Below are positions 17,835-36,467 of a stretch of DNA of 64,000 bases, in pieces. The DNA is from a virus (lineage: Duplodnaviria; Caudoviricetes), in the IMG/VR virus record IMGVR_UViG_3300020576_004755, positions 96,001 through 160,000 of that record; one strand, 5' to 3'. Below the pieces are notes generated by a model. The model did no database searches. It worked only from the letters and a program-made list of their open reading frames with translations, and was not told where the DNA came from. How positions within the stretch are numbered: position 1 is the stretch's first letter; the number at the start of each line of letters is the position of its first letter. Made by a program: the position numbers and the translations under genes.

Positions 17835-18440
17835 TTAGACACTCCTCTTGCTTGTTGTTTTTTGCTGTTGCTGCTGTTTGTTGAACTTTGTGACAATCGA
17901 CACACCCTGTAGGTGATCGTATTCGTGCATAAAAACACGAGCGCGAAGTCCGGTTAGGGTTTCTTCGCGCTTTGTGAATGTTCGGGTTGTTTCGTCCAGT
18001 TGATACCATGAGGCTTGAATTGAGACTGGACGCTCAATAGCGAAAAGCTGTCTGGTGGTTTTACGCACGCTCAGACAGCCTTCTATTTGTGATTCTTTTG
18101 TTGTGGAGTTTGGATTGTATGTGTAGCTTGGATTGAAAAATGCTTCTGTCTCTGTTGTTTGCTGCCCGTCAGTTGGGAGGAGGTTGATGATAAAGAGTTG
18201 TCCGTTGAAGATTCCGAGTTGAGGTAGGGCTAAGCCGATGCCGTCTTTTTCTGCGCGAAGTGTGTTTGTCATCTTATCGACAAGACGGACCAAACTGCTG
18301 CACTCTTCTTCTGTCAAGAGTCTATCCACAAAACTATAGGGAATAGACTTCCTTCCATCAATCTTTGAGTGATCAAAGATCTTGGCTATAATAGAGTGCT
18401 TCTCTTCCGTTTTTGCTGCTGTCGTGAATGTGCTATTCAT
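17835..18440 (-). CDS. def: peptide deformylase
   Basis: GIGLALPQLG, EGCLS, HEYDH: all three PDF motifs. Confidence 0.92.
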   Translation of the reverse strand: MNSTFTTAAKTEEKHSIIAKIFDHSKIDGRKSIPYSFVDRLLTEEECSSLVRLVDKMTNTLRAEKDGIGLALPQLGIFNGQLFIINLLPTDGQQTTETEAFFNPSYTYNPNSTTKESQIEGCLSVRKTTRQLFAIERPVSIQASWYQLDETTRTFTKREETLTGLRARVFMHEYDHLQGVSIVTKFNKQQQQQKTTSKRSV

Positions 18441-18620
18441 AAAACTTCTTGTTGCTTGCATACACAAGCTATCTGTTCTTCTTTTTATGGCATCTGCACC
18501 TTTTGCTTATTCAGCTATTTACAGTGCCTTGTTGTGTTTTCTTTTTTGCAGGTAAAAAGAACTATACCTGTTCACTCTCTATAAGTATAGGAGAACAGGC
18601 AATTTCTTATCGGGAGACTG

Positions 18621-19010
18621 TCAAAAAGATTCTGCCATACGGTTCCAAATTCCTCGATCTTCTGGTCCAGCGGCGTCATGACGTAGATGAAAGCAAAGTT
18701 CAGTAGTCTGCTCATTCAAAAAAGGGAAAGAGGGAATTGAAACAATTTGCGTAGAAAAGTAGTCTCCTGCTCCAAAAGGCTCTTCACATACTCTCTTCAA
18801 ACGAAGCAAATTGTCAAGACGCTTAATCATTTGAGCTAGTTCCGTGTGTCCATAATTCCGACCGGGGTTAGCAATCTCTTGACATAGAGAAGAGATTCCC
18901 GCTACGTTTTGCATAAGAATCTCATGCAATTGAGGATCCGGCTTCTTTGTCACAAGAGTTACCTTGGTATGATCGACAAGGTTGTGACAGTGAGTAATGC
19001 GAATTGACAT
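18621..19010 (-). CDS. MTIR-tag family orphan
   Basis: starts MSIRITH. Confidence 0.7.
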   Translation of the reverse strand: MSIRITHCHNLVDHTKVTLVTKKPDPQLHEILMQNVAGISSLCQEIANPGRNYGHTELAQMIKRLDNLLRLKRVCEEPFGAGDYFSTQIVSIPSFPFLNEQTTELCFHLRHDAAGPEDRGIWNRMAESF

Positions 19011-19029
19011 TTTTCTCCCTTCTCTTTTT

Positions 19030-19410
19030 CTAGTCGCAAACCGTTAGCTTTAGGTTCCGTTCTACAATTTCCCTTCGATACCATTCCCAAAAGAATGGAC
19101 CAATGTTAGGAAACTCTGACATTGATACGTTATTGAAATTTCGAGACATGGTTTGAAATACATAGCCCTTCTTGTTTTTCTGGTATACGTATGGAGAAAC
19201 TGCAACCACAAAGCGTCCTGAGTTCCTTATGAAGAGTGTGGGAGGACTTCTAGGCACTCCTATTCCATTCCAAGAACCAAGGGAAATTACAGGAATTCCG
19301 TTGAAAGCATGTACCAAACAAAGAAGAGCAGTACCACCCTCATTCTTTGTCTTGTTTGTTAGATTTGCTCCCTTTGGAACTTTCCAGTCAACTGTTGAGC
19401 GAATGGTCAT
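19030..19410 (-). CDS. MTIR-tag family orphan
   Basis: starts MTIRSTV. Confidence 0.7.
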   Translation of the reverse strand: MTIRSTVDWKVPKGANLTNKTKNEGGTALLCLVHAFNGIPVISLGSWNGIGVPRSPPTLFIRNSGRFVVAVSPYVYQKNKKGYVFQTMSRNFNNVSMSEFPNIGPFFWEWYRREIVERNLKLTVCD

Positions 19411-19413
19411 TTC

Positions 19414-19737
19414 TCAATCCATCTTCCATATAGGCATTTGTTTGTCCTTATTCTTTTTCTCAGGATGGACTTGATTCCAAATCGAATTGATAAAACCAAC
19501 CTCTTTCCAGAAGACACTGGCAAGACTTGGATTTCTAATCATGTTATTGTACGTAAAGGTTTCACACTTGGAGAGAAGAGTTTTCCCTGTCAAATCCTTG
19601 TGTGTTGAATACAGAAGAACACGAATGTAGTATTTCGTGTATTCCCAAACGCTGCCATGATAGAAATCTCCGTTGCTAACGCGGAGCATCTTCAATTCCT
19701 TGGTGTATTTTACGTTTAGACTCTGGCGAATGGTCAT
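19414..19737 (-). CDS. MTIR-tag family orphan
   Basis: starts MTIRQSL. Confidence 0.7.
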   Translation of the reverse strand: MTIRQSLNVKYTKELKMLRVSNGDFYHGSVWEYTKYYIRVLLYSTHKDLTGKTLLSKCETFTYNNMIRNPSLASVFWKEVGFINSIWNQVHPEKKNKDKQMPIWKMD

Positions 19738-19742
19738 TATGA

Positions 19743-20045
19743 TTACTTGCCCAACAAGTCCGTGTACTCATCCCATACACAATTAGGAATTCGATCTATT
19801 GTAGCCAGATGACTAGAATCGGTAGAATGGATCAATTTACGGACGTCGTAAAGGACCAGTATTTCTTTTCCGTTGTCATCGGCGTCAGGTACATACCTGT
19901 GAAGGGTTGGATGTGCAGGCATCACTGTCTTCATTCGTGTTCGAAGATAGAAAATGTAAGTCTTGCGCTTCTTTTTGTAGAATGATTCATAAGTTGGGTC
20001 ATCCAACTGAAACAGGCTGTTCTTTGTATTTGTTCGAATCGCCAT
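19743..20045 (-). CDS. MTIR-tag family orphan
   Basis: internal ATG gives MAIRTNT. Confidence 0.65.
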   Translation of the reverse strand: MAIRTNTKNSLFQLDDPTYESFYKKKRKTYIFYLRTRMKTVMPAHPTLHRYVPDADDNGKEILVLYDVRKLIHSTDSSHLATIDRIPNCVWDEYTDLLGK

Positions 20046-20056
20046 CGACAGAAATC

Positions 20057-20323
20057 TCAACTCTGGATATAAAAGTTTTGAAGAGTTGCCATCAACTTGT
20101 CAAGTTCGCCTCTGGTTGAAGCAATACGCTTTTCTGATGACAACATGCCAATGACAACCTGATAAAATCCTTCATCATTATCTTCTTCAAAAAACGAAGT
20201 GACAAGATGAACAGAACCTACGTTGCCAGCAAAAACTGCTGGATCCAATCCATCTTGTACGTACGCATGAGTAAGCGTATTTGTCAAATTTGGATTTAAG
20301 GCATACTTTGCGCGGAGTGACAT
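20057..20323 (-). CDS. MTIR-tag family orphan (variant)
   Basis: starts MSLRAKY. Confidence 0.6.
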   Translation of the reverse strand: MSLRAKYALNPNLTNTLTHAYVQDGLDPAVFAGNVGSVHLVTSFFEEDNDEGFYQVVIGMLSSEKRIASTRGELDKLMATLQNFYIQS

Positions 20324-20331
20324 TTGTGTCC

Positions 20332-20829
20332 TTACTTCGAATAGCCAACTGCCTTCATGTTCTCAAGCGTATTCTTGAGGAAAATGAATGCCTTGTTGTA
20401 CTTCTGCATACGAACGAAATCCTTGTCTCGCAGTCCCTTGAGACGAGTGATATCGGAATTGTCTCGCAAGTCTTCCATCTTAACGCGAATGGCATCGGTG
20501 TTCGAAGAGATTCGACGAATGTAAATCTCGTAATCCTCATCCTTATCGTGAGTCATCAGAGCAAGAGCATCTGTGACACGCTTAGAGAATCCGTTCTCAC
20601 GAAGCTTCTCAATGGTCCAAGCACCTCCAGAATCCTCTACAACGTCGTGCATGATAGCAATCTGCATTAGTTCTTCATCGGTCGTACGAAGGCGCTGCAT
20701 GACTCGCATAGGGTGAAGGATATAAGCATTGCCACCTTGATCCTTCTGTGTCTCGTGGACAACGGAAGCAATCGCGATGGCAGTACCGAGGAGATTGGAA
20801 GTGTTGTTTGTGTTGATATTTGTGGTCAT
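20332..20829 (-). CDS. HD-domain hydrolase, RelA/SpoT-hydrolase (small alarmone hydrolase/Mesh1)-like
   Basis: H..Q.D.GG.AYI.HP..V, IMHDVVED, VKMEDLRDN. Confidence 0.85.
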   Translation of the reverse strand: MTTNINTNNTSNLLGTAIAIASVVHETQKDQGGNAYILHPMRVMQRLRTTDEELMQIAIMHDVVEDSGGAWTIEKLRENGFSKRVTDALALMTHDKDEDYEIYIRRISSNTDAIRVKMEDLRDNSDITRLKGLRDKDFVRMQKYNKAFIFLKNTLENMKAVGYSK

Positions 20830-20835
20830 GGTTCA

Positions 20836-20865
20836 AAGATACCAAACAATATCCAAAATGTAAAG
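20836..20865 (-). promoter_or_regulatory. early-type promoter (leaderless)
   Basis: TTTACA-N17-(TGg)TATCTT, 6 nt before ATG 20829. Confidence 0.65.
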
Positions 20866-20869
20866 TGGT

Positions 20870-21208
20870 TTACTGATTATTGTGCTGTACTACAGTAAGC
20901 CTGTAATATCTAGGCATAAACAGCCAAGCGTTCAAGTCATTGTTTTGGGTGCAACGATTGACGTTGTTGATCTTAACAATTGTTCCATTATGCTCGGTAC
21001 ACCACGCTGCTTGAATAGCGCGGTTGGCTTCATTCACATCAAGCCTTTCGGACTGCAACTGATTGTAGTAATCTCGTTGAGCACTCAATGTAAAAGTTGC
21101 AACTGAACCTGCAACGTTGAAGAAAAGGCTAATGAGCAACATTATCATTATTGACAATGGAAGCAATGATTCGTCTTGTGTCTTTTGCTGTGTCATCATA
21201 ATATTCAT
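20870..21208 (-). CDS. membrane protein
   Basis: N-terminal hydrophobic helix. Confidence 0.6.
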   Translation of the reverse strand: MNIMMTQQKTQDESLLPLSIMIMLLISLFFNVAGSVATFTLSAQRDYYNQLQSERLDVNEANRAIQAAWCTEHNGTIVKINNVNRCTQNNDLNAWLFMPRYYRLTVVQHNNQ

Positions 21209-21209
21209 T

Positions 21210-21689
21210 CTATCGTTTGATTTTGGAAATGTAAACCGTAGGGTCCATTAAGAGATTTGGCATTGGCTCTCCAATATTCCAAATAACGGTTTGTTCTGGA
21301 ATATCCGAATAAAGCTCCAAGTGCAGCATGGTCGTTGGATTCTTCCCTTTGTCTTTCTTCAAGACTTCGGCAATAGTACCAATGCAGTCATTAACAGAAA
21401 CCTTTGTGCCAATTGCAATGTCCGTGTCAATCTCGCCATAAACAAAGACAAGCTTGTTACTATTGCTGCTTTGTACCCAAACCGCTTGTGTGTCCTTCCA
21501 CCACGGAGTCGGAGGATTGCTCTTTGTTCCCGTGAACCATTCAACGTTGACAACCACCCCATCTTCAATCGGATACACTTTCGTACCATAAGGAAGGTAG
21601 ATATCAATGCCCGTATGAATATCATGCTTTCGTACAGCACCAAACCTTGCATGGCTTGGAATATTATCGTTCGATTGCTTGGAGTTCAT
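21210..21689 (-). CDS. M23 family metallopeptidase (peptidoglycan hydrolase-like)
   Basis: HTGID...G.VV...MLHLE. Confidence 0.8.
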   Translation of the reverse strand: MNSKQSNDNIPSHARFGAVRKHDIHTGIDIYLPYGTKVYPIEDGVVVNVEWFTGTKSNPPTPWWKDTQAVWVQSSNSNKLVFVYGEIDTDIAIGTKVSVNDCIGTIAEVLKKDKGKNPTTMLHLELYSDIPEQTVIWNIGEPMPNLLMDPTVYISKIKR

Positions 21690-22581
21690 TGATTGTCTCG
21701 GTTACAAAATCCATATCCACAGCAAGGCGCTTAAACCAGTTAAGAAAATAGGTTTCAAGCTCGTTGGACCTTGGATGCGTCCCCTTGTGTGCCTTAACAA
21801 AATCCTTATAGTTTTGAATCTTGTCGGCAACCAGCATTTGATTGACTTCGGGAATCGGAGACAGTGCCACGCTTGAGAATAGGTTCTCTTCGGTTACATC
21901 TTGGCGAAACGAGAGATAGGCATTTGCAATGTTTCGGTACTCCATCGCAAGCATAATGACCCTCTTGTTGTCAATCTGATCAACATACTTCATGCCATAC
22001 GTTGCAAGGTCCGAGTCTCCCTGAAAGATTGGATGAAGCATGTAAGCAGAAACGGTGTCACCGTCTGTTACCTTAAGCTTGTTGTGAAGAATATAGATTC
22101 CCTCATCAACGTGATTCATGTAAGGGATCTTAGAACGCTCTGCAATCCTAGAGCCATACACTTCCGAAATGATGTTGTAATGCTTCTCTGTGCTCTTGTT
22201 TGCAAGAGGATACGCACGGACAAAGCTGTATCGGTTCTTGGTGAACGTCCGCTCAAGATTGCAGTCAACGATTGTGACAAACGGAGTCTTGTTGGAGTTG
22301 TGCTTCAATCCATACATGTTTGAAACACGCTCAAACATTCCCTTGCCACGAGCACTCTCGTAGATATAGAGAGAAATGAAAAGGTCAAAGTAGTTTGGAT
22401 TGGACTTCTGTGCCTTACGGAAGTAAGTCTTTGCAGCGACAGGCTTTCCATCTACGACGACTTCAATGCACTCACGACACCAAATATACCCATCTGTCAA
22501 AATCTGCCTTGCACGATCCTGATAGTATGTTGTGACGTCTTGAAGATTATTTGCGTTCTTGTTGAGGCGAATGTAAGTCAT
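21664..22581 (-). CDS. hypothetical protein with HD-like C-terminal domain
   Basis: PYMNHVDEG, AYMLHP, MLVADKIQN; possible GNAT-like ARGKG in the N-terminal half. Confidence 0.6.
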   Translation of the reverse strand: MTYIRLNKNANNLQDVTTYYQDRARQILTDGYIWCRECIEVVVDGKPVAAKTYFRKAQKSNPNYFDLFISLYIYESARGKGMFERVSNMYGLKHNSNKTPFVTIVDCNLERTFTKNRYSFVRAYPLANKSTEKHYNIISEVYGSRIAERSKIPYMNHVDEGIYILHNKLKVTDGDTVSAYMLHPIFQGDSDLATYGMKYVDQIDNKRVIMLAMEYRNIANAYLSFRQDVTEENLFSSVALSPIPEVNQMLVADKIQNYKDFVKAHKGTHPRSNELETYFLNWFKRLAVDMDFVTETINELQAIER

Positions 22582-22594
22582 CTTGTTGCTTCTC

Positions 22595-23827
22595 TCAATG
22601 TCCACTGTGGGCATGAAGAACATTCATCTGTCCCGCATGATTCACTTCGATATCCCAAAGTGCGTTCGTGTTGAATCGATTGAAATCCGTACCAGTCTGC
22701 GGATTGTACTCCCAATGCGGCTTCTCGTCATCATTGAGATCCGTGAAGGTCACACTGTAATGACGCTCAATCTCAAGAGACTGTGGACCAATCTCATTTC
22801 GCTGTGCCACAAGATCCTGCGGATCACGAAGATTGTGGTCATTGAAACCGTGAAGCTCGGAAGTAGCAATCACCGTCCACTGATAGTAATCGTACGAACA
22901 CCACTGTTCCATCGTAGGACACTGTTCATAGCAAGTGTCATACTCAGTCCGCGAGCAAGAATCACACTCGGTATGCGACTGCGGAGTGCAAGTCTCAGAA
23001 CACTCGGAAAATCCATTTCCGCTGCTATGGCAAGACTCATGGCAGGATTCACCATCGCTCACGCTATGACAGTTGCACTCGTACGAGACACTGTGAGGAT
23101 TGCAGTTATACGGATTGCAATCGTGAGTGCCATGCTGGCGAGTCTCGCAAACATCGTTGAAATGCGAAGCAGGCTCATCATCCTGCCAACCCGTGTCATG
23201 GTGCGTGGAACGCTGCGAAAGGTTCGCACGATGGCTCCAGTACGTGTTCGTAACCGTAACCAGCTTGGAATGATACGAGAAAAGCCAGAAGAGAAGGAAG
23301 ACCAGAAGACCAAGACCAGCGACTACGGCACCAATCTTTGCGTAAAGAAGCTTCTCTTCATCGCTGAAAAAAGAATTGAGCTTATTGTTGCTGTTGTCAT
23401 CGGTAGAAGGAAGCCAACCAGTAGGCTCAATGACGCGAGCAGGAGCACTATTCTTTGGGGCAATAGCAGGACGAAGAATACGGTTCCAGTCATGCTGGAC
23501 CGGAGGATCGGCAAGAGTCTCCTGCTGCTTTTCTTTTGCAGCTTCAAGCGTCTTGGGACCACCGCAAACCGAACACTCACCATAAAGGTTACGAACATCG
23601 TTCTTGCAGAACTCGCAAGACCAATTCGAACCAGCCTTTGCAAGCTTCAAAAGCTCGGGATCCGTAACCGGAGCAGACGTAAGATTCTTTGAAGTGTCGT
23701 ACTCCTCACGCTTCTCTTTGTAAGATCCGCACTTCTTACACTTCATATCGCGACCACGATTCACTTCCTTGCAGGAATCGCAAGTCCAAGTATTCTCAAC
23801 GGTCCAACGACGCTTAACGTAGCTCAT
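22595..23827 (-). CDS. membrane protein with two RanBP2-like zinc fingers and a Cys-rich outer domain
   Basis: WTCDSCKEVN..CKKCG, WSCEFC..CSVCG, TM helix, >10 Cys in C-terminal region. Confidence 0.75.
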   Translation of the reverse strand: MSYVKRRWTVENTWTCDSCKEVNRGRDMKCKKCGSYKEKREEYDTSKNLTSAPVTDPELLKLAKAGSNWSCEFCKNDVRNLYGECSVCGGPKTLEAAKEKQQETLADPPVQHDWNRILRPAIAPKNSAPARVIEPTGWLPSTDDNSNNKLNSFFSDEEKLLYAKIGAVVAGLGLLVFLLFWLFSYHSKLVTVTNTYWSHRANLSQRSTHHDTGWQDDEPASHFNDVCETRQHGTHDCNPYNCNPHSVSYECNCHSVSDGESCHESCHSSGNGFSECSETCTPQSHTECDSCSRTEYDTCYEQCPTMEQWCSYDYYQWTVIATSELHGFNDHNLRDPQDLVAQRNEIGPQSLEIERHYSVTFTDLNDDEKPHWEYNPQTGTDFNRFNTNALWDIEVNHAGQMNVLHAHSGH

Positions 23828-24114
23828 GCGTGCTCCAAGTCTTTGTTTTTCTTGTTTTCGGTCCAGTTTTTCTTTTGTTCGATCGAATCTTTAATCAAGA
23901 GCTTTGCAGCTTCCTTAATCGAAGTGCAAACAACAACCCGATCCCACGAAATCGCTGTCAGCTTAACGCTCGCATTGTCATGATCAAGAGTTGCAACAAT
24001 TCGACCGTCAAAAGAGGAATACACTCGCTCAGAAACATTATCATTCACCATAGACGCAAAGGTCATTTGACCTTCAAGCTTTTCTATGGTCTTCTTGTTT
24101 ACAAGAGTGTTCAT
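23824..24114 (-). CDS. hypothetical early protein
   Basis: ATG 7 nt after the promoter -10. Confidence 0.65.
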   Translation of the reverse strand: MNTLVNKKTIEKLEGQMTFASMVNDNVSERVYSSFDGRIVATLDHDNASVKLTAISWDRVVVCTSIKEAAKLLIKDSIEQKKNWTENKKNKDLEHA

Positions 24115-24121
24115 ATGATCC

Positions 24122-24150
24122 ATTATAGCAAAAATATCCAAAATGTAAAC
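24122..24150 (-). promoter_or_regulatory. T4-early-like promoter (leaderless)
   Basis: GTTTACA-N16-(TGc)TATAAT. Confidence 0.85.
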
Positions 24151-24201
24151 TAACATTTGGATATTGTTTTTATGCTTGTTTTGCAGTCTATCGGTCAATC
24201 A

Positions 24202-24470
24202 TCAACGAATAGGCAGAACTACAGCAGTACCAGTCTCGGTGTCAAACTCAAGGGTGCAGCATTCGCCATATTGAACCCACTTCTTCAAAGCAGACTCAAC
24301 CTCTTGATACTCTTCATCAACCAATTGCTTGAATTCTTTCTTCGCAGACTTATCTTCAAAAGAACGTGATACAAATCCTCATGTCCATTCTCGCGGAGCT
24401 TCGCAACGGCATGATCCTTTATCGACTCGTAAAAGCCATCGGGATCCTTAATTGAAATTGTGATCTTCAT
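24202..24470 (-). pseudogene. frameshifted hypothetical gene (MKITISIKDPDG...KWVQYGECCTLEFDTETGT)
   Basis: 269-nt span; adding one T in the T-run at 24358-24361 joins two frames into an 89-aa ORF. Confidence 0.65.
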
Positions 24471-24491
24471 TTTCCTTTTCTCTCTTTTTGA

Positions 24492-24695
24492 TCAACGACG
24501 ACCAAAGTTATTTGCGCGAAGAAATATTGGAGTATCCTTGCTTACGCATCGGAAGACGCCAGCATCATCCTGAATCAAAACGCCATTCGGACAATCTGGT
24601 CGATTCACATACTGATATCCATTGAATGCCCAGGCACCTACAATTACTAGGAGGACAAAAACAAAAAATGCTTGAAAACTTCTATCGCTATGCAT
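24492..24695 (-). CDS. small membrane protein
   Basis: TM helix then C-x11-C. Confidence 0.55.
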   Translation of the reverse strand: MHSDRSFQAFFVFVLLVIVGAWAFNGYQYVNRPDCPNGVLIQDDAGVFRCVSKDTPIFLRANNFGRR

Positions 24696-24732
24696 ATTGA
24701 ATATTTCCTTTATATCTTTCTTTTTCTTGTTT

Positions 24733-25101
24733 TCAGCCCCAAGCGAAGCACTCGCCGTATTCCTGGCAGTATGCGAGGATGGCATCGAGACGGAAAAGGA
24801 AGCTAAGAGCCTGGTCGTCCTTCGGATCCAAGGTCGAAACGTTGGTTAGCTTGAGGATATTGCGACGAAGCTCGGCAATAAGATCCGGCGAAATCTTGCC
24901 AGTCGGCGCGGGATCGATGCCGATCAGGTTGAGAAGGTGGGATGCCGTGCTATTGCTCACACAAAGCTCCGGGGCATCGCAAATGCTAACCCATCCATCA
25001 CCCTTGCAGAAATAGCAATCGCTATCCGGGGTACACGTACACTGACGCTCCGAATAGGTGGGAGTGTGATTCGCGGAGGTGGAGTAGAAGGTCGTCGTCA
25101 T
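24733..25101 (-). CDS. hypothetical early protein with Cys cluster
   Basis: ATG 7 nt after the promoter -10; CxC..CxxCxG. Confidence 0.65.
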   Translation of the reverse strand: MTTTFYSTSANHTPTYSERQCTCTPDSDCYFCKGDGWVSICDAPELCVSNSTASHLLNLIGIDPAPTGKISPDLIAELRRNILKLTNVSTLDPKDDQALSFLFRLDAILAYCQEYGECFAWG

Positions 25102-25108
25102 AACATCT

Positions 25109-28756: not shown

Positions 28757-28765
28757 TGTTCGTGT

Positions 28766-28821: not shown

Positions 28822-29199
28822 TTAGTGCGGAACCTCTTTAACTACTGGACAAAAGTGACTCTCTGAGTCTGCTAGCTCGTTTAGAAAGACTTTGACAAAG
28901 GCTCGGACAGGCATGGGAAGTGAGGTTGTTGTGACTGCTGGAGCAAAATGATAAGATACAGTGTTCTGAAAAGTCCAGTAATGGTTGATCCAACCTGAAC
29001 CCTCTTCTCCCTTATAGAGAAAGTTGCACGGTCCCGTGATTGCCTTGTCGGAGATTTCAATAAATCGTTTGGTTTTTGGATTTGTCATATTATTTCGAGA
29101 AATAGAACCAAGGAAGCCGATAAAAGATGCAGAGTTAATCTTGAAAAAGATTAATGGCATTGGTCCAAGAGTCTCTGTGTTTGTTCTACGGATTGTCAT
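28822..29199 (-). CDS. MTIR-tag family orphan
   Basis: starts MTIRRTN. Confidence 0.7.
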   Translation of the reverse strand: MTIRRTNTETLGPMPLIFFKINSASFIGFLGSISRNNMTNPKTKRFIEISDKAITGPCNFLYKGEEGSGWINHYWTFQNTVSYHFAPAVTTTSLPMPVRAFVKVFLNELADSESHFCPVVKEVPH

Positions 29200-29497
29200 C
29201 TTTTTCTTTCTTCAAAAGCTGTGCAATCAACCCATCCCACATTAGCCGAAACTTGATATAGTTTGGAGGAGACTCAATATACTTGTAAATCTTCTCGTTC
29301 ACAAAGAGTTCAATCAACCACTCTTGCTTCTCTGTGAACGGATCGGACTTTCCAAGATACCGCTTTATCTGGCTCTTAAACCAAAAGAGAAAGGTTTCCT
29401 TCTCGACGCAGTAAAGCTCAATTCCACGAATGAACCGACTGATCTCGTCTGAGAAGAAGATTTTCTCCTTTTTCTTCTTTTGGTATTTCGTTGCCAT
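29186..29497 (-). CDS. hypothetical protein
   Basis: MATKYQKKKK. Confidence 0.55.
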   Translation of the reverse strand: MATKYQKKKKEKIFFSDEISRFIRGIELYCVEKETFLFWFKSQIKRYLGKSDPFTEKQEWLIELFVNEKIYKYIESPPNYIKFRLMWDGLIAQLLKKEKDDNP

Positions 29498-29507
29498 GAT
29501 GTTGTTT

Positions 29508-29738
29508 TTAGTCGTGCGAGGTATAGGATCCGAGAGAAAAGCTGCAATACTCACGGGTCCACTCAAGCGTCTCAGGATCGTACTCTCCGTCAACATAGAC
29601 GGTGATCTGTGGGCTGGTGTAATATCCACCCGTAGAAATCTCTTCAAGGTGGATCTCTGCCTTGTACTTCTTAAGAAGCTCCTGTAGATCCTTTCGGAAC
29701 TCTGCTTCGACTTCCTGCTTGGTAATCATTATGGTCAT
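29508..29738 (-). CDS. hypothetical protein
   Basis: ORF in operon. Confidence 0.6.
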   Translation of the reverse strand: MTIMITKQEVEAEFRKDLQELLKKYKAEIHLEEISTGGYYTSPQITVYVDGEYDPETLEWTREYCSFSLGSYTSHD

Positions 29739-29751
29739 GGTTCAATCATCA

Positions 29752-30003
29752 TCAGTGTGCGTCAGGATAGATAAGGTAACAGTTGGTATCCAGTAAAAGT
29801 GCTTCTGCGTGAACTCGACGATTTCCACAAGAACATCGCGGTTCGCCTACAATCCAAGTCTCGCATTCGCAAATGTTGCTGTCAATCCTTACTTCTTCGT
29901 CTGATTCAGACCAAACCTCAAGCCAAAATGCAATTGCATCTTCTGCCGAATCGGCAATTACTTCTGCGGAAGAAATCGATTCGTTTCGAAAACTAGCTTT
30001 CAT
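29752..30003 (-). CDS. hypothetical protein (RCSCGNRR)
   Basis: ORF in operon. Confidence 0.6.
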   Translation of the reverse strand: MKASFRNESISSAEVIADSAEDAIAFWLEVWSESDEEVRIDSNICECETWIVGEPRCSCGNRRVHAEALLLDTNCYLIYPDAH

Positions 30004-30007
30004 TTTT

Positions 30008-30250
30008 CTACTTCTCCTTGTTTCTTAGAAGAGAGCCGCAAATCGCGTTTAGCTTCTGCAAATGCTCAATTTCTTGTAACAATGCATCTACATTGGTGAC
30101 GTTCGCGTCGTCTTTGAAATTTGCACACGCTTTCATCCAAGCAAGTGCAGCCTCATAATCATTTGGATTCTCATCCAAATTCTTGCGGGTGATTTTTACT
30201 TGATCAACCGCTGCACGGCATTGATCGATAATTGGTTTGGTGATTGTCAA
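30008..30250 (-). CDS. hypothetical protein
   Basis: ORF in operon. Confidence 0.55.
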   Translation of the reverse strand: MTITKPIIDQCRAAVDQVKITRKNLDENPNDYEAALAWMKACANFKDDANVTNVDALLQEIEHLQKLNAICGSLLRNKEK

Positions 30251-30539
30251 ATTCTATATCACGCAAGGTAGAGTCAACAGATTTAATTGTGTCATAGACT
30301 TGCCGACGAATAGTCTTTGGAAGGTATGGGACTTCGTGATAGGTTAGTTCTTTAAATCTTCCAAGGCATGACAGGCTGGCTGTTGAATAATCTGCTGGAA
30401 GTTGAAAGCTGCACTGTCGAACATAACCAAGGTAATACCAATCGCCATAAGAATCAAAATCATGTATAAAGATGGCTACGTAGATGTTGTCCACAGTCTC
30501 TTGAACATAATCATGACGGTGTAGTGCTCTTATGGTCAT
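30204..30539 (-). CDS. MTIR-tag family orphan
   Basis: starts MTIRALH. Confidence 0.7.
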   Translation of the reverse strand: MTIRALHRHDYVQETVDNIYVAIFIHDFDSYGDWYYLGYVRQCSFQLPADYSTASLSCLGRFKELTYHEVPYLPKTIRRQVYDTIKSVDSTLRDIEFDNHQTNYRSMPCSG

Positions 30540-30757
30540 TACAATTCACCCCTCCAAATCTTCTTGATTGCATTATATTGCATTGGCAATGCTCTCATTG
30601 GACCAACCATGTAATTCATGGTGAAGTTCATCATGTAATATTTAGGTAGGGGATGACGAGAGGATTCATGGACAGGGATAACATCTTCTTTGTCCTGAAG
30701 AAGAGTATAGATTTCAAAGCCTTCAACAACATGCGAATATGTTTTTCTGATTGTCAT
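30539..30757 (-). CDS. MTIR-tag family orphan
   Basis: starts MTIRKTY, ATGA overlap. Confidence 0.7.
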   Translation of the reverse strand: MTIRKTYSHVVEGFEIYTLLQDKEDVIPVHESSRHPLPKYYMMNFTMNYMVGPMRALPMQYNAIKKIWRGEL

Positions 30758-31002
30758 TTCCAATCTCCCAAATCTTTCACCAAGATCAACTTATGTTCAT
30801 TGCGAATCTCTTCGCAAAACTTATGGGCACTTTTCCTAATTGCTGTTGTGAAAACTGTGCCTTGCCATGGATAACAGATTTGATAAGTGTAAGCATAGCA
30901 GGCAAGACCAAAAGGTACATTCTTGTCGTTGTCAGCTACCAACAAATAGTTCAAGCTACCAAAATGAGGATATGGTTTCTCTGGTCTTCTTCGAATTGTC
31001 AT
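30754..31002 (-). CDS. MTIR-tag family orphan
   Basis: starts MTIRRRP. Confidence 0.7.
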   Translation of the reverse strand: MTIRRRPEKPYPHFGSLNYLLVADNDKNVPFGLACYAYTYQICYPWQGTVFTTAIRKSAHKFCEEIRNEHKLILVKDLGDWK

Positions 31003-31310
31003 ACGTACAATGGTCCATTTCCTTCTTTTTGCTCAAGATAGCCATATTCAAGGCAAAGGGTTTGAAGCCAAAGAAACTCTTTTGAGGACGCTAGTGGTTT
31101 AATTCCTGCGTCTGAATATAGAAACTTTTCAGAAAAGCAATTTTCACCAGCGATGATTCTTCTAGCCCATGCGTTGAACCATATAAGCTTTCTAAGATCC
31201 TCGCCGAGATATGTGATAATCACAGCAGGATACCAATCCGTAGAAGCACGAAGAGGATTTGTTCTGATCTGATACTCGAAAGTATTCTTATGTGAGATTC
31301 TAATAGCCAA
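30999..31310 (-). CDS. MTIR-tag family orphan (TTG start)
   Basis: TTG GCT ATT AGA = (M)AIRISH. Confidence 0.6.
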   Translation of the reverse strand: MAIRISHKNTFEYQIRTNPLRASTDWYPAVIITYLGEDLRKLIWFNAWARRIIAGENCFSEKFLYSDAGIKPLASSKEFLWLQTLCLEYGYLEQKEGNGPLYV

Positions 31311-31554
31311 AGCTACAACCACTTTCCTGCATCATGCGTTGAAACTCCATATGGTGTTTAACGTTACCATTATAGAACATAAACGTCCAGTCTGATTTCC
31401 TGACTTTGCCGTCTGTGCCTATAAATGTTCGGTTTTGAAGTATGTATCCATGCCGGTCCAGTCTATTATTACGCTTTTTGTTGCCCCATGTGAGCATGAT
31501 GAAACAATCCGTCTTTTTCAAGAGCTTTGTACTGTGTCTTGCTCGGATTGTCAT
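31300..31554 (-). CDS. MTIR-tag family orphan
   Basis: starts MTIRARH. Confidence 0.7.
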   Translation of the reverse strand: MTIRARHSTKLLKKTDCFIMLTWGNKKRNNRLDRHGYILQNRTFIGTDGKVRKSDWTFMFYNGNVKHHMEFQRMMQESGCSFGY

Positions 31555-31557
31555 TAC

Positions 31558-31833
31558 TCAGAATCCTCTGATTGTTGTAGACCTACGTTCTGCTGCTGGC
31601 ATCTGTGCTAGGATTCCCCACGCATAAGAAAGAACCAATGGATGAGACTTTCTTGTTGCCTTGGTGGCAAGGTAGATTTTGCCTTGCGATTCTTGTGTCA
31701 CAACATCAAGAGTCATGAAATGATAATGTGGTCTAAGGTTCAAATGAAAGGCACGGAACAGATTCTTACTTTTTCTGTTCTGCATGAGCTTCAATGTCTT
31801 CTTGTCGAAGTTGAGTGTTTGTCTGATTGTCAT
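31558..31833 (-). CDS. MTIR-tag family orphan
   Basis: starts MTIRQTL. Confidence 0.7.
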   Translation of the reverse strand: MTIRQTLNFDKKTLKLMQNRKSKNLFRAFHLNLRPHYHFMTLDVVTQESQGKIYLATKATRKSHPLVLSYAWGILAQMPAAERRSTTIRGF

Positions 31834-31836
31834 TTT

Positions 31837-32040
31837 TTATAGGAGTCCTCTTGAAACAAGTTCAGCAATCTGCACGTAACGGATGTAAAGACGGGTATGA
31901 GCTACAGCACGACCAGAGAATGTCATTGGTATCTCTTTCTGGCAGCATGATAGACTGTAAAGCATAGTGTCAGGGGAAATCATCAAGTAAACAGTCTGTT
32001 TTCTTTTGAGCTTATCTGTGTGGGTTGTTCTAATGGTCAT
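31837..32040 (-). CDS. MTIR-tag family orphan
   Basis: internal ATG gives MTIRTTH. Confidence 0.65.
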   Translation of the reverse strand: MTIRTTHTDKLKRKQTVYLMISPDTMLYSLSCCQKEIPMTFSGRAVAHTRLYIRYVQIAELVSRGLL

Positions 32041-32042
32041 TT

Positions 32043-32297
32043 TTATAGCAGTCCATCGAAAGCTTTGTGCCAGTTTGGAATATCGGTTTGATATAGAAAG
32101 AGTCTTTTGAGAAATCCAGAGTAAGAGTTTACCTGAGAAAGAGTTGCTAGTTTGAATCCAACAGGAGTACGAGGACGCGACCATGCTGTTGGTGACACAG
32201 TGCTCTTGTGAAGAGTTACAATCTTGGCTCTTATGTTCTCAACTCCATGAGTCTTTAGTGAAAGAATATTTGTTGTGCAGGTTGATCTGATTGTCAT
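32043..32297 (-). CDS. MTIR-tag family orphan
   Basis: MTIRSTC, ATGA overlap. Confidence 0.65.
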   Translation of the reverse strand: MTIRSTCTTNILSLKTHGVENIRAKIVTLHKSTVSPTAWSRPRTPVGFKLATLSQVNSYSGFLKRLFLYQTDIPNWHKAFDGLL

Positions 32298-32548
32298 GGC
32301 ATTGGTAGTCCAAAGTGAGTTCTCCATTGCAAGGATTCTTCGTAACTTACGTTGCAACCCCAGGTAAACAGGGGTCGAGTGGGTCGAGGGTGATTACTTA
32401 GCCTTCTAGCAGAATAAGAATAAATCATCCCCGTCCAGTGCCGTTTCGGATCGTCGTTTAACGATACAATCTTCGCAAGATACCTACCATTGTAGCAGTC
32501 TGTTGGCAGGTTTGTAAACTTTGTTACGTGTATTGTCCTGATCGTCAT
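32294..32548 (-). CDS. MTIR-tag family orphan
   Basis: starts MTIRTIH. Confidence 0.7.
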   Translation of the reverse strand: MTIRTIHVTKFTNLPTDCYNGRYLAKIVSLNDDPKRHWTGMIYSYSARRLSNHPRPTRPLFTWGCNVSYEESLQWRTHFGLPMP

Positions 32549-32555
32549 TTGTTTA

Positions 32556-32789
32556 TTAGAAGCTTCCTTGAAGCATTATATCCGAAATCAACCGAAAATG
32601 TGTGCCATTCATTGTAAAGAACAAATTGCGCAGACCCTCTCCATCAATACGAACCATGCAGCCTGCCCCAATGGTATATATGTTGCTTAGGTGTACAGTG
32701 TCATCTTGGAAAATCCCATGACCAGCCCAAAAGTTGCAAGCAAACGCATTGCTACAATCGTCGTATTTGAATTTTGTTCTAATTGCCAT
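32556..32789 (-). CDS. MTIR-tag family orphan
   Basis: starts MAIRTKF. Confidence 0.7.
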   Translation of the reverse strand: MAIRTKFKYDDCSNAFACNFWAGHGIFQDDTVHLSNIYTIGAGCMVRIDGEGLRNLFFTMNGTHFRLISDIMLQGSF

Positions 32790-33039
32790 AATACTCGCAC
32801 CACAATTGAATATATCTGTTTAGCATTTTCTCTGGAGCAAAGATTGGGGCATCACGAAAATAGTAGTGGTCTTGCTTGTATCCACTGGACACTTGCATTT
32901 CGTACGTAACTACGGTGCCAGATTCTCTCTCGTGAGTCCAGTTAACTGGACTTGTTTGTCTTGTTTGTGCATAGAAAGACCGCTTCCAAAAAACTTCCCA
33001 TTTTGGCAATGCGTATATGTATGTTGTTCTAACGGTCAT
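32779..33039 (-). CDS. MTIR-tag family orphan
   Basis: starts MTVRTTY. Confidence 0.7.
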   Translation of the reverse strand: MTVRTTYIYALPKWEVFWKRSFYAQTRQTSPVNWTHERESGTVVTYEMQVSSGYKQDHYYFRDAPIFAPEKMLNRYIQLWCEYYGN

Positions 33040-33242
33040 ATAAACTCTGCATAGTATATGCGTACCAAGTATGACGCCGCGACGAACGCCTCATCAGAGA
33101 AAAACCAATTTTTTCTACTTTTTACCAAAGGGTATTCAAGAATAAGCCCAGAATGCCTCCGATGAATACGACGAGCAAAAGTGGTAGTTGCTGTACTCTT
33201 GGAAGAAGGTAGTTCTGCTCTGTATGTTGTTCTAATCGTCAT
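33036..33242 (-). CDS. MTIR-tag family orphan
   Basis: starts MTIRTTY. Confidence 0.7.
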   Translation of the reverse strand: MTIRTTYRAELPSSKSTATTTFARRIHRRHSGLILEYPLVKSRKNWFFSDEAFVAASYLVRIYYAEFI

Positions 33243-33243
33243 T

Positions 33244-33507
33244 TTAGTCCATTATCTCCCCTCGCTCAATAGCCCAAACAAGTCTTGTGCATGGATCTCT
33301 TGGACCAAGCGGAGTTCGATTCAATGCGATTCGAACCTCGTCCTTCCCAGGTCGAAACCAGAAATCTCTATACATGAAAAATCCCGATGGTGTAGGAGAA
33401 TATAACCCAGGAGGAAAAGAAGGCGGAAGAGGTCTGGCATTTTCTTTAAACAGACCAACAACAATGACCATGTTGTTTTTTGACTTGTATGTCTTTCGGA
33501 TTGTCAT
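33244..33507 (-). CDS. MTIR-tag family orphan
   Basis: starts MTIRKTY. Confidence 0.7.
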   Translation of the reverse strand: MTIRKTYKSKNNMVIVVGLFKENARPLPPSFPPGLYSPTPSGFFMYRDFWFRPGKDEVRIALNRTPLGPRDPCTRLVWAIERGEIMD

Positions 33508-33950
33508 GGCATGATGTATTCACTGGTAAGAGCATCAATGTTTTCAAAATCGTAGTGATTTGCAAGGTCTTCCCATGCCATCTTTGTTTGAAGTCTCATT
33601 GTGAGATGAAATGATTTGGGTTTGACAAGACCTAGCTTTGCCAAAATATACTCTACGTCCTGCTTAAAACTACGATAGTGATTCTCGGCAAGAAAATGAG
33701 CTAGACTTTCATGTAGTCCATGTGGCATAGACTTGTGAGTTACCTGCCAACTTTCTACATTCGCAAAAATGGGCTCAGACTGTTTTAGATTTCTACCATA
33801 ACGAATTGCAGGACGACATATCACAATCTTTGGCATCGTGTTAACGTAGAAATGTTTCCCGTCCCCTGTCCGACCAGCATAAAGTGGTACTTTCCTTGTA
33901 CGAGTCAAGGTTGTTGGAAGTTCTGTTTGATATGTTCTTCTAATGGTCAT
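33504..33950 (-). CDS. MTIR-tag family orphan (paralog of 55619-56041)
   Basis: MTIRRTY; VNTMPK and KPKSF shared. Confidence 0.7.
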   Translation of the reverse strand: MTIRRTYQTELPTTLTRTRKVPLYAGRTGDGKHFYVNTMPKIVICRPAIRYGRNLKQSEPIFANVESWQVTHKSMPHGLHESLAHFLAENHYRSFKQDVEYILAKLGLVKPKSFHLTMRLQTKMAWEDLANHYDFENIDALTSEYIMP

Positions 33951-34213
33951 GGAAGTGTTTTGTTTCTCATAACAGAGACGAGGCATTCCATAACATCAGC
34001 AATCAAGAGAATTGATATTTGATGCTTAGTCATCGTCGATTCAGCTCCAAATAGACTGGACAGATTTGTTCCAATATCGGTGACTAGATCTATAAGATAA
34101 CACTCACCGTCAGGATGATATTGACCTTTTCTGTCAGCAAACGTGCCAATCCAAGCACTCGACGGAGTGCTTGTATCCCAATCGTCAGTCCTGTGTGTTC
34201 TTCTAATGGTCAT
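33947..34213 (-). CDS. MTIR-tag family orphan
   Basis: internal ATG gives MTIRRTH. Confidence 0.65.
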   Translation of the reverse strand: MTIRRTHRTDDWDTSTPSSAWIGTFADRKGQYHPDGECYLIDLVTDIGTNLSSLFGAESTMTKHQISILLIADVMECLVSVMRNKTLP

Positions 34214-34223
34214 AGTGTTTTTA

Positions 34224-34469
34224 TCAGAACACTCCAGTCTCTTCAATTTGCTTGAACAACTTCCCATATGTTGTGGGAAGTCCAGTTCTACCTTGACACA
34301 TAGGAACTTTGTTATATCCGCTGTTAATATGCCTATATTTAGGATGAAAATACCAGTTACTTTTCCATACGAGTATCGGTTCGTTGTAGCGCCAGGAATA
34401 TTCGTCTATAAACGCTACAGAAACAGCACTTGAATTGTTACTGGATTTTATTGTATGTCTAATTGTCAT
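34224..34469 (-). CDS. MTIR-tag family orphan
   Basis: starts MTIRHTI. Confidence 0.7.
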   Translation of the reverse strand: MTIRHTIKSSNNSSAVSVAFIDEYSWRYNEPILVWKSNWYFHPKYRHINSGYNKVPMCQGRTGLPTTYGKLFKQIEETGVF

Positions 34470-34707
34470 GTGACTTGACCAGTTCTTTGAACTCTGTCAT
34501 TGCACAAGCACTCACAAAGTATTTATCTGCGCGGACGAAACGTTCCTCACGAATAGAAAGTTTGTGAATGCAGTTGAGAACGAGTTTGTTGCACAGAGAC
34601 TTTACCTCTATGTTGTGATAGACATAGGTGTCAAAACGATATACTTTGCCTAGCTTTTCCGCAAAGCTTATCAAGCCATTCTGCACGTTTGTTGTTCTAA
34701 TTGTCAT
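34459..34707 (-). CDS. MTIR-tag family orphan
   Basis: starts MTIRTTN. Confidence 0.7.
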   Translation of the reverse strand: MTIRTTNVQNGLISFAEKLGKVYRFDTYVYHNIEVKSLCNKLVLNCIHKLSIREERFVRADKYFVSACAMTEFKELVKSHDN

Positions 34708-35348
34708 TGTACCAATAGTCCATTCTTCTTCAAGAAGTCATAGAACTTACCAAACCGCTGCGCATCAAGCTTGTTGATCTTTTGCACTTGATTTAGCTTG
34801 GTTTGGTAAGCATCCCAATCAATGTCGTCCTTGGTCCAGTTAAGCTCAGAACCCTTATTCATATCCTTTCTAAAATCACCAATGACCACGGTTGAGTAGA
34901 ACCCTCCGGTGCCCTTCATCTTGTTATAGATTTGATTTAGCAATTGGTTGAAGAGCTTGTCTGCAAGTACCTCGTTCGGAGTATCGTTATTGCGAGTTGC
35001 TCCAACGACTGTATTCTCTGCCGAAGTGTAATCTGTCATCTGTTGACGACACTTCAAATCAATCTCTGCCTTCTTGTGCCATTCGTTTTCATTGATCTGG
35101 AAAGATAGCTCTCCGGTCCTGAACGGCTTGTAGAAGTTAAGAATAACCTCAAGACCTGCCCAATCAAGATAAGGCAAGTCTTCTGTCTTGGTCGTGAAGA
35201 ACGTATCGTGCCATACTTGATCGCACTCAAGCATTACGTGCTTAAGGCGAAGCAGAACACGACTGTTCACAAAATCATTCATTCCATCGTACTGAATGAA
35301 CGCTGATGCTGATGATGCCTGCTGTTGCTTCTGTTGCTGCTTGCTCAT
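34704..35348 (-). CDS. hypothetical protein
   Basis: MSKQQQKQQQ..., ATGA overlap. Confidence 0.7.
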   Translation of the reverse strand: MSKQQQKQQQASSASAFIQYDGMNDFVNSRVLLRLKHVMLECDQVWHDTFFTTKTEDLPYLDWAGLEVILNFYKPFRTGELSFQINENEWHKKAEIDLKCRQQMTDYTSAENTVVGATRNNDTPNEVLADKLFNQLLNQIYNKMKGTGGFYSTVVIGDFRKDMNKGSELNWTKDDIDWDAYQTKLNQVQKINKLDAQRFGKFYDFLKKNGLLVQ

Positions 35349-35677
35349 CCTGCAATCTTCTTCCACGAGTTCATAAACGAAACAATATTCATCGCACCAG
35401 CGGGATTGCTGGAATGAACCTGATAAGCTGGACACTTTGGAAACTCGTCTTGCTCATAGAACCACTCCTCAAGCTGACGAAGAAAAACCATGGTTGTGTC
35501 GTCACCACCGAGATCATGGTCGAAGCTGAAAAACTCAGGAAGACCATAGAACTTGACGTAGTGAATCGCATCTGCACTGTTTCTGCAAATGACCCATTGT
35601 CCAGGCACGTCCCTCTTTGGAAGATGCTTAACGTCGTCAAGACCGCGAAGGTCGTCGAGAAAAAGGAAATATGCCAT
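35345..35677 (-). CDS. cyclic-phosphate-processing receiver-like domain protein
   Basis: LFLDDLR...SFDHDLG...VHSSNPAG; GGAGG RBS. Confidence 0.8.
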   Translation of the reverse strand: MAYFLFLDDLRGLDDVKHLPKRDVPGQWVICRNSADAIHYVKFYGLPEFFSFDHDLGGDDTTMVFLRQLEEWFYEQDEFPKCPAYQVHSSNPAGAMNIVSFMNSWKKIAG

Positions 35678-35741
35678 GACGGAGGTTTACTTTCCCTTAC
35701 ATCATGGCATATCTATTTTGTTTTGTAAACTCGAATACGTA

Positions 35742-36467
35742 TTATTTCTTCGAAGTCTTTTTAGGCTTTTTTGGTGTCGATACCAATTCTGGTTCTGGTT
35801 GCTTGTTCACAACGCGCTTTGGAAGCTCTGTTGGCATAACGAACTCAACGTTCATGTTAACGCTGATGTTGAACTTTGGTGTTCCAATCACGTTGGCAAC
35901 ATTGTGCTTAACGCACTCATTCGCGTCCAAGAACCAGTCTGCATGACGACGTGAGGTAATCTCTTTGCCAAAGTATTCCTTGGTATGACCGCAATTGGCT
36001 GCCATGATCTCAAGAATCTTGTCGTTCAAGCGATCTGCTTCCTTGGCAGATGCCTTGATCTCTTCATTCTTACCAAAGGCAACGGACGATACTTCATGAA
36101 TCATAACGGTTGCGTTTGGACCAACGAAGCGATAGCCCTCGTGTCCACAAGTGAAGAGTGCTGCTCCGCATGACATTGCCTTGCCTTCAACAATCGTAGC
36201 AACCTTCAAAGAGGGATCGATTGAGTTGATAGCGTCAATGCAAGCCATGAGAGAATAGACTTCTCCACCGTATGAGTCGATGATGATTGGAAGAACCTTC
36301 TGCTGCGATTCAAGGGCATGATTCTCTGATTGAATCAAGTCTTGACGGAACTTCATGCAGTTGTCTTCTGAGAACTCGCCTGTGAAGCGAACGTAAATTG
36401 GAAACTTTGAGTGCTTCTCTGGTTCGATTAGTGTAATTCTTGGATCTACATTAACGATATACTTCAT
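35742..36467 (-). CDS. clpP: ClpP-family protease
   Basis: IDSYGGEV, GKAMSCGA (catalytic Ser), MIHE (His), DWFLDA.E. Confidence 0.9.
   Translation of the reverse strand: MKYIVNVDPRITLIEPEKHSKFPIYVRFTGEFSEDNCMKFRQDLIQSENHALESQQKVLPIIIDSYGGEVYSLMACIDAINSIDPSLKVATIVEGKAMSCGAALFTCGHEGYRFVGPNATVMIHEVSSVAFGKNEEIKASAKEADRLNDKILEIMAANCGHTKEYFGKEITSRRHADWFLDANECVKHNVANVIGTPKFNISVNMNVEFVMPTELPKRVVNKQPEPELVSTPKKPKKTSKK

Follow-up and report, generated by a model that had tools for sequence, protein, structure and literature searches.

Small genes on one arm of the genome of an uncultured, tailed river phage encode proteins that share four N-terminal residues, Met-Thr-Ile-Arg or a close variant (MTIR, called the tag below), and genes for a peptide deformylase (PDF, gene def) and a ClpP-fold serine protease stand among them. 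The phage is represented by IMG/VR record IMGVR_UViG_3300020576_004755, a single virus record of 182,849 bases (~183 kb), and the window analyzed here is its bases 96001–160000, a stretch of 64,000 nucleotides (nt); positions are those of the window unless given as genome positions. A preliminary description of this DNA proposed that the phage PDF and ClpP take part in a pathway that processes and recognizes the tag. Our analysis, which works from sequence, does not support a dedicated PDF/ClpP pathway for the tag. Instead, PDF and ClpP are probably ordinary accessory genes that occur across a clade, around whose conserved backbone a lineage-specific library of tagged orphan genes has expanded. 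What stands of the earlier proposal is that residue 2 of the tag permits Met excision and that the tag appears to be selected as a peptide; what falls is the link of the phage PDF and ClpP to the tag.

Evidence that the two enzymes and the tag occur independently came from related phages. Relatives were fetched through their capsid protein, which gave 24 whole records with capsid identities of 50–71%. The preliminary description had proposed looking for co-occurrence of the tag with def and clpP across such relatives, and the comparison went against it: six of the 24 have PDF and seven have ClpP, yet the MTIR tag is absent from all of them. Each relative record contains the MTIR DNA pattern 0–5 times, level with a reversed control and thus at chance level in all 24, as against 54 times here. 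Genes were read in eight relatives, comprising one 189-kb record as a whole, the PDF or ClpP neighborhoods of six others, and the ClpP region of the relative L008. No enriched N-terminal 3- or 4-mer was found in the 189-kb relative or in the six neighborhoods, and no common start was visible among the genes around ClpP in L008. The ClpP orthologues of seven relatives are 39–58% identical to the protein encoded here and the PDF orthologues 27–35%, which is consistent with inheritance of def and clpP within the clade. Two relatives carry def and clpP on one strand (G012, 45 kb apart; G013, 36 kb apart) and have no tags. In L008, whose ClpP is 58% identical, homologues of ClpP, an M23 peptidase and a 319-amino acid (aa) protein are encoded within 3 kb; here, clpP lies 13 kb from the M23 and 319-aa genes, and the gap includes a 17-gene tagged array.

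Searches beyond these relatives gave a similar picture. A scan of IMG/VR for MTIRTT[YF]K returned three matches, none of which opens an open reading frame (ORF) of at least 50 aa. The same scan of JGI metagenomes returned 54 matches, mostly on high-GC contigs, with at most two scattered matches per locus and no tagged array. Megablast of window positions 17000–37000 against cultured phages matched nothing. Across the 24 relatives and the two pattern scans, the tag library turned up in this phage and its close strains alone, and no independent tag-bearing lineage was found.

The position of the two genes is no more telling. The preliminary description had placed def directly downstream of the last tagged gene in the same orientation and clpP inside the tagged tract, and had cautioned that the linkage could be chance. 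Both placements are correct: the last tagged gene (18621–19010) is followed immediately, on the same strand, by def, and clpP lies between two tagged arrays. A spacer of 153–159 nt, with a terminator-like hairpin in it (−19.5 kcal/mol, z −2.4 relative to shuffles), nevertheless separates def from the array. The gene upstream of clpP is tagged (36593–36898); on the downstream side, clpP is followed by a cREC_REC gene and a 214-aa ORF, beyond which lies a tagged array. The spacer upstream of clpP is 125 nt long and contains a promoter-like site, in a region where sigma-70-like promoters are not more frequent than in a shuffled control. Thus, def and clpP each stand behind a spacer of more than 120 nt, whereas about half of the tagged genes overlap the upstream stop codon. 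The minus-strand arm that contains all of these genes (16738–60343) makes up 24% of the record and includes ~40 untagged genes, among them genes for SLOG, HD-domain, M23 peptidase, DnaJ-type zinc-finger, cREC_REC and SF0329 proteins. Because def and clpP are among the ~40 untagged genes of an arm that spans a quarter of the record, their co-location with the tagged genes is unremarkable and does not exceed chance.

The PDF ORF (17835–18467, minus strand) likely starts with the ATG at 18461, giving a protein of 208 aa; a TTG at 18467 is an alternative start. The protein scores 88.8 bits against Pfam PF01327 (cut-off 22.8; E 3.7e-25) and has all three metal-binding/catalytic motifs (GxGxAAxQ, EGCLS and HExxH), in the form GIGLALPQ, EGCLS and HEYDH. 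It scores under the NCBIfam cut-offs, with 71.8 bits versus 103.95 for TIGR00079 and 86.8 versus 125 for NF001159. Being over the Pfam and under the NCBIfam thresholds, the predicted PDF is a divergent member of a known family. A search of IMG/VR for PDF-related loci gave nothing confirmed. The nearest cultured homologue is the PDF of cyanophage S-SSM7, with 34% identity over two thirds of the protein. The S-SSM7 enzyme is 10–15 times faster than a host PDF on fMTSI, fMTTA and fMLIS (Frank et al. 2013, PMC3660681), and it favors fMet-Thr/Leu-type tetrapeptides, the fMet-Thr type being that of photosystem protein D1, over fMAKK-type or ribosomal-protein N-termini (PMC3660681), indicating that phage PDFs can have N-terminal preferences. 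The PDF described here is like the S-SSM7 enzyme and the PDFs of huge phages (PMC7162821) in being phage-encoded and in having the three catalytic motifs. Its candidate substrates differ from those of the S-SSM7 PDF, in that tagged proteins of the phage itself would take the place of D1. Phage PDFs have been read as general support for nascent-protein processing during infection (PMC3660681, PMC7162821).

The clpP gene starts with an ATG at 36467 and encodes a protein of 241 aa that opens MKYIVNVDP. Its score against Pfam PF00574 is 88.7 bits (cut-off 20.2; E 5.7e-25), and it is the sole ClpP match in the record. Alignment to solved ClpPs, the only basis for the assignment, places the catalytic triad at the Ser of AMSCG, the His of MIHEV and the Asp of HADWF. 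As with PDF, the NCBIfam cut-offs are not reached (71.7 bits versus 308.6 for TIGR00493; 79.1 versus 249 for NF001368), so the predicted ClpP also is a divergent member of a known family, over the Pfam and under the NCBIfam thresholds. The accessory ClpPs of other large phages (huge phages LR756511 and LR756508, and Microcystis phage Mel-JY01) are likewise free-standing, have an intact triad and lie outside the head module. These proteins are without a demonstrated substrate or partner and without an associated tag, and the ClpP of the tract differs from them in being divergent (79 bits versus 249). A role as the head maturation protease was considered for ClpP and rejected. The gene lies outside the head module, its product scores 59.9 bits versus 120 for NF045542, and a gp21-type prohead protease (Peptidase_S77; genome 30436–30879) is encoded between the portal and capsid genes, indicating that the ClpP of the tract is not the head protease.

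The preliminary description had suggested that a phage or host Clp adaptor or ATPase reads the tag. A phage-encoded reader of this kind is not borne out, since the 182,849-base record has no match to ClpS or to an AAA_2-type Clp ATPase (ClpX/ClpA). Methionine aminopeptidase (MetAP) likewise has no match in the record. The record may be incomplete, with a CheckV completeness of ~48%, and the missing MetAP, ClpS and Clp ATPase are therefore weak negative evidence. Only one AAA+ protein is encoded in the record, a 475-aa classic-clade ATPase (genome 93257–94684, 2 kb before the window) whose Walker A sequence is GKPGTGKT and whose long N-terminal domain is unassigned to a family. Clp features are absent from this ATPase, and in relatives it does not neighbor ClpP.

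The properties of the tag itself are the part of the earlier proposal that held up. Tagged genes were picked by pattern from ATG-start ORFs that have 60 codons or more and lie between 19010 and 60343 on the minus strand; 71 ORFs resulted. Residue 2 is Thr in 54 of these, Ala in 9, Ser in 5, Pro in 2 and Gly in 1, and residue 3 is Ile in 67, Met in 2, Val in 1 and Leu in 1, followed by Arg. Three further tagged genes on this strand have GTG or TTG starts (47684, 48311 and 31310), and one MTIR gene lies outside the tract on the opposite strand (15501–15776, plus strand), for a total of about 75 tagged small genes. These genes make up ~40% of the ORFs of the record; in this genome, MTIR occurs 54 times and MAIR 9 times. 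The plus-strand tag and the tags with GTG or TTG starts indicate that the tag travels with its gene and needs neither an ATG nor the tract. Given that the 71 tags were selected by pattern, the count was redone without restriction on position 2. All M-x-I-R starts of the tract strand have Thr, Ala, Ser, Pro or Gly as the second residue, including the three GTG/TTG starts. The statement in the preliminary description that position 2 is nearly always one of these five residues thus applies to 71 of 71 ATG-start and 3 of 3 GTG/TTG-start genes, the exception that it named (MMRTT at 49156) being a degenerate tag. Gly, Ala, Ser, Pro, Thr or Cys is second in 71/71 tags versus 90/164 (55%) ORFs outside the tract (Fisher p 4.6e-15), and Thr is second in 76% of tags versus 18% of other genes. 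A small uncharged residue 2 is an accepted requirement for MetAP (PMC3154147). The rules for fMet/N-degrons and Met excision (PMC4745127, PMC3154147) similarly tie deformylation and residue 2 to the fate of a protein, but they are general to all proteins, and the tag is seen only to comply with them.

It had been suggested that Thr at position 2 is favored by ATGA overlaps with the upstream stop codon. The tag overlaps the stop as ATGA in 22 cases and as TAG at bases 9–11 in 9; the other 40 tags have no overlap, and Thr is second in 28 of them, so ATGA overlap does not explain Thr. Codon use within the tag is varied in some respects and skewed in others. The Ser codons include both TCN and AGT, the Gly codon is GGA, and Arg uses three CGN codons (CGA, CGT, CGC) alongside AGA and AGG; none of the single-step neighbors Asn, Lys, Ile and Arg occurs at position 2. 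This variation points to selection acting on the tag peptide, making it a fair prediction that Met removal exposes Thr-Ile-Arg and that the mature N-terminus is Thr/Ala/Ser-Ile-Arg. The Thr codon is ACC or ACA in 51/54 tags, with ACT used once versus 11 expected (chi-square p 1e-6) and ACG nearly absent, and the Arg codon CGA is used ~4 times more than expected (24 versus 6; chi-square p 9e-11). Ile codons match genome usage (p 0.39), and RNA structure is minimal 10–20 nt past the tagged starts. The combination of peptide-level variants and nucleotide skew suggests that the start region is shaped at both levels.

Beyond the tag, the tagged proteins have little in common. With the first four residues stripped, only one pair among the 71 is related at E<1 by phmmer, and BLASTP finds the same pair. 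None of the tagged proteins matches Pfam, PHROG or PADLOC. A profile built from the single related pair and run against 1.84 billion representative proteins returned only its two queries, and a word-based search for homologues of one tagged protein recovered nothing but the query. The ESM Atlas gave no feature match, and its structural matches are all below a template modeling (TM) score of 0.4; the Atlas model of one tagged protein has a predicted local distance difference test score (pLDDT) of 0.36. One match came from tblastn of all tagged proteins against 1.06 Mb of the relatives' DNA; it falls in the middle of an unrelated 290-aa protein and was judged spurious. Most tagged proteins are basic, with a net positive charge in 58/71; His, Trp, Tyr and Cys are abundant in them and Ala, Gly and Gln scarce, and G at codon position 1 is weaker in their ORFs than in the phage's large genes. 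The tagged proteins look young or poorly structured. Glutamine runs occur in one tagged gene (MTIRRQQQQQQQQR, 53096–53407), near the PDF C-terminus (QQQQQ, 17835–17900) and at the opening of the 214-aa gene beside ClpP (MSKQQQKQQQ, 35300–35348).

Strain variation was read from run X9, a freshwater-sediment metagenome of another study with contigs 80–95% identical to the window. These contigs lack exactly one tagged cassette at 19400–19726, where the break has 12 letters common to both sides, and exactly one at 31829–32035; at a third cassette, the 284 bases 20048–20331 are swapped for 10 other letters. Tag DNA therefore seems to be a microhomology point for the gain and loss of cassettes between strains. 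Def and clpP are covered in the X9 strains as well, but these strains are not distant enough from this phage for an independent test. A joint in X9 that skips 31420–36494, including ClpP, has a depth of 4 and uncharacterized flanks, and was not used as evidence.

Taken together, these data favor a model in which PDF and ClpP are inherited as accessory genes within a clade of phages with T4-like capsids. PDF, ClpP and the MTIR genes would share the leftward accessory arm through expansion of the library, not through membership of a pathway. PDF may provide general co-translational deformylation capacity during infection, and ClpP may provide an extra proteolytic chamber that depends on a host unfoldase. 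The tagged proteins would be deformylated by the host PDF, the phage PDF or both, and would then lose Met to host MetAP, so that mature proteins open with Thr/Ala/Ser-Ile-Arg through generic processing. Because the residue-2 rule holds and operates at the peptide level, deformylation and loss of Met are expected of every tagged protein.

Several observations weigh against this model. The record has a CheckV completeness of ~48%, and a 252-kb contig in another assembly encodes one tagged protein, so a phage ClpX or MetAP could lie outside the sequenced part. The nearest cultured homologue of the phage PDF, that of S-SSM7, favors fMet-Thr-type tetrapeptides over ribosomal-protein N-termini (PMC3660681), and the Thr-Ile-Arg core resembles the N-terminal ClpX degrons of lambda O and Dps (PMC8138137). 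All 71 tags are Met-excision substrates, and the excess of Thr (76% versus 18%) is a strong bias that so far has no other explanation. Moreover, the independence of enzymes and tag in the relatives means that the enzymes do not need the tag; it leaves open that the tag uses the enzymes.

N-terminal ClpX degrons of the lambda O/Dps class have a consensus of Thr, a hydrophobic residue, a basic residue and a hydrophobic residue near the free N-terminus, and Thr-Ile-Arg fits three of these positions. In its sharpest form, the earlier proposal would make MTIR a degron of this class, bared by deformylation and Met excision, with host ClpX feeding host and phage ClpP in a timed clearance of ~75 early proteins. 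The lambda O (TNTAKI...) and Dps (STAKL...) signals, described by Flynn 2003 and tabulated in PMC8138137 (Table 1), also lie at the extreme N-terminus, are bared after Met removal and have a Thr-hydrophobic-basic core. A degron would fit with a position 2 that always permits Met excision and with a ClpP that keeps its Ser-His-Asp triad, and the orphan nature of the tagged proteins and the pLDDT of 0.36 for one Atlas model might suit short-lived proteins. However, the known signals are loose and occur on single proteins, whereas MTIR is near-invariant on ~75 unrelated proteins, and its preference for Ile over Val/Leu and for Arg over Lys is far stricter than in known ClpX N-motifs. The likeness is limited to three residues: position 5 is mostly polar, unlike the hydrophobic residue of known degrons, with Ile or Val in 7/71 tags and 16/71 if Ala is counted. 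In addition, relatives have ClpP and PDF without the tag, and no ClpX, ClpA or ClpS match is present in the record. A degron of this class is very unlikely, although the likeness to lambda O and Dps is kept as a lead. It is also a long shot that MTIR serves as an N-terminal timer in a wider sense, with Thr-Ile-Arg acting as a ClpX-type degron or as a handle for a phage reader, an early burst of orphan proteins being cleared together, and the phage PDF and ClpP raising the capacity for both steps. Should the degron reading prove correct, phage-wide N-terminal addressing for timed proteolysis would have its first example. A related proposal leaves ClpP uninvolved and holds that the phage PDF is tuned to fMet-Thr-Ile-Arg, keeping pace with ~75 identical N-termini before Met excision. 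The rates of the S-SSM7 enzyme, the nearest cultured homologue, on fMTSI, fMTTA and fMLIS and its preference for these over fMAKK-type peptides (PMC3660681) are consistent with such tuning, as is the fact that tagged genes are ~40% of the ORFs of the record. Nevertheless, six relatives have PDF without tags and a terminator-like hairpin separates def from the array, which makes a tuned PDF highly doubtful.

The position-2 pattern could also arise from nucleotides if the start region were a joint for translational coupling or recombination, approximately ATG RCM ATH MGA, with stops in both other frames and unstructured RNA; in that case, small residues would simply follow from keeping C as the fifth base. 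Such a joint explains the stop codons in both other frames (22 ATGA junctions and 9 with TAG at bases 9–11) and the strain data, where X9 contigs lack exactly one cassette each with breaks at tags, one of them with 12 common letters. The codon skew for Thr and Arg and the low RNA structure 10–20 nt after the start are also as expected. A purely nucleotide-level joint is contradicted, however, by codon variation in the tag, because Arg codons come from the CGN and AGR sets alike, Ser is either TCN or AGT, and the Gly codon GGA breaks the C rule yet specifies a small residue. Ile codons at genome usage, tags with GTG or TTG starts, the plus-strand tag outside the tract, and Thr in 28/40 non-overlapping tags also argue against it, and we consider this explanation unlikely. 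Lastly, the capsid-targeting sequence of phage T4 internal proteins is an N-terminal peptide of about ten residues that ends in the prohead-protease site [LI]-x-E. The tag could have a similar function, loading proteins into the prohead and being removed there by the head protease; the capsid protein of the phage is T4-like and its prohead protease gp21-type, and in both systems one short N-terminal peptide is carried by unrelated small proteins of a T4-like phage. The tag has only four residues rather than about ten, though, and no protease motif is enriched after it: [LI]-x-E occurs in 10/71 proteins within residues 5–30 and in 7/71 within residues 35–60, with no preferred position. Since 75 cargo proteins would also be far above any known case, capsid targeting is extremely improbable.

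The layout of the minus-strand arm is given in Table 1.

Table 1. Arrangement of tagged and untagged genes on the minus-strand arm of the window
Feature	Position	Strand	Basis
Peptide deformylase, untagged	17835–18461	−	Pfam PF01327, PHROG 2890, motifs
Terminator-like hairpin with trailing U-run (spacer separating def from the last tagged gene)	18555–18600	−	RNA fold
Tagged array A: five genes (MSIR, MTIR, MTIR, MAIR, MSLR)	18621–20323	−	ORF starts
Untagged island: HD domain, M23 peptidase, 319-aa PHROG 21276 protein	20332–28756	−	Profile matches
Same untagged island: 410-aa zinc-ribbon protein, DnaJ-type zinc-finger protein, orphan genes	20332–28756	−	
Tagged arrays B: single gene (28822–29199) and unbroken 17-gene run (30204–34707)	28822–34707	−	
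Two untagged genes 3' of ClpP: 214-aa ORF and cREC_REC gene (35345–35677)	34704–35677	−	
ClpP-fold serine protease, untagged	35742–36467	−	Pfam PF00574, triad alignment
Promoter-like site upstream of ClpP: TTTACA, 17 nt, TAGATT, with TG	36540–36568	−	Consensus match only
Tagged array C: 14 tagged genes and a degenerate MTIQ gene (38733–39446)	36593–43795	−	
Tagged array D: 35 ATG-start genes, two GTG-start genes (47684, 48311) and a degenerate MMRTT gene (49156)	45593–60343	−	

The TTG-started gene at 31310 belongs to the 17-gene run of arrays B, and between the single gene and this run lie a few untagged or degenerate-tag ORFs. The 214-aa ORF beside ClpP had no match in family profile searches. 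The cREC_REC gene that directly follows ClpP encodes a cyclic-phosphate processing receiver domain; together with an RNA ligase gene (10796–11467) and a Metallophos gene (15757–16617), it suggests an RNA-repair set. Within the untagged island, a paralogous ORF pair (23824–24156 and 24733–25143, minus strand) opens MLVYI(L/M)(D/E)IFA in both copies. Each copy has a near-consensus site (TTTACA, 16 nt, TATAAT), a 12-bp palindrome lies at 25122–25151, and the two loci look like repeated early promoter/operator units. On the other side of the tract, two adjoining Amidoligase_2 genes (411 and 552 aa; 60716–63606, plus strand) are transcribed divergently from the first tagged gene. Enzymes of the amidoligase family have been proposed to be modifiers of peptides or proteins, and the pair are candidates to act on the tag.

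Elsewhere in the record, a portal protein, a gp23-type major capsid protein and a DnaB-type helicase are encoded. The nearest cultured capsid proteins are those of Flavobacterium phage immuto (47% identity) and Microcystis phage Mel-JY01 (41%). Public sequencing runs with a matching stretch are river, wastewater and freshwater-sediment metagenomes, with no RNA run among those listed. Both ends of the record, outside the window, carry tRNA genes (genome 474–4242 and 165045–181755; 24 in all), an arrangement that suggests a circularly permuted genome. The set includes three tRNA-Thr (GGU, UGU and CGU), tRNA-Ile (GAU) and two tRNA-Met; tRNA-Arg is absent from the 24, and one call has a two-base anticodon.

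The library itself is very unusual, in that ~75 unrelated proteins without known homologues have four N-terminal residues in common, and any clue to the reader of the tag is therefore valuable. If PDF and ClpP are accessory genes of the clade, as favored here, the likeliest-looking candidates for dedicated partners are removed and the search for that reader is narrowed. Two predictions are left: that the mature N-terminus of the tagged proteins is Thr-Ile-Arg, and that tag DNA marks the points at which whole cassettes are gained and lost between strains.

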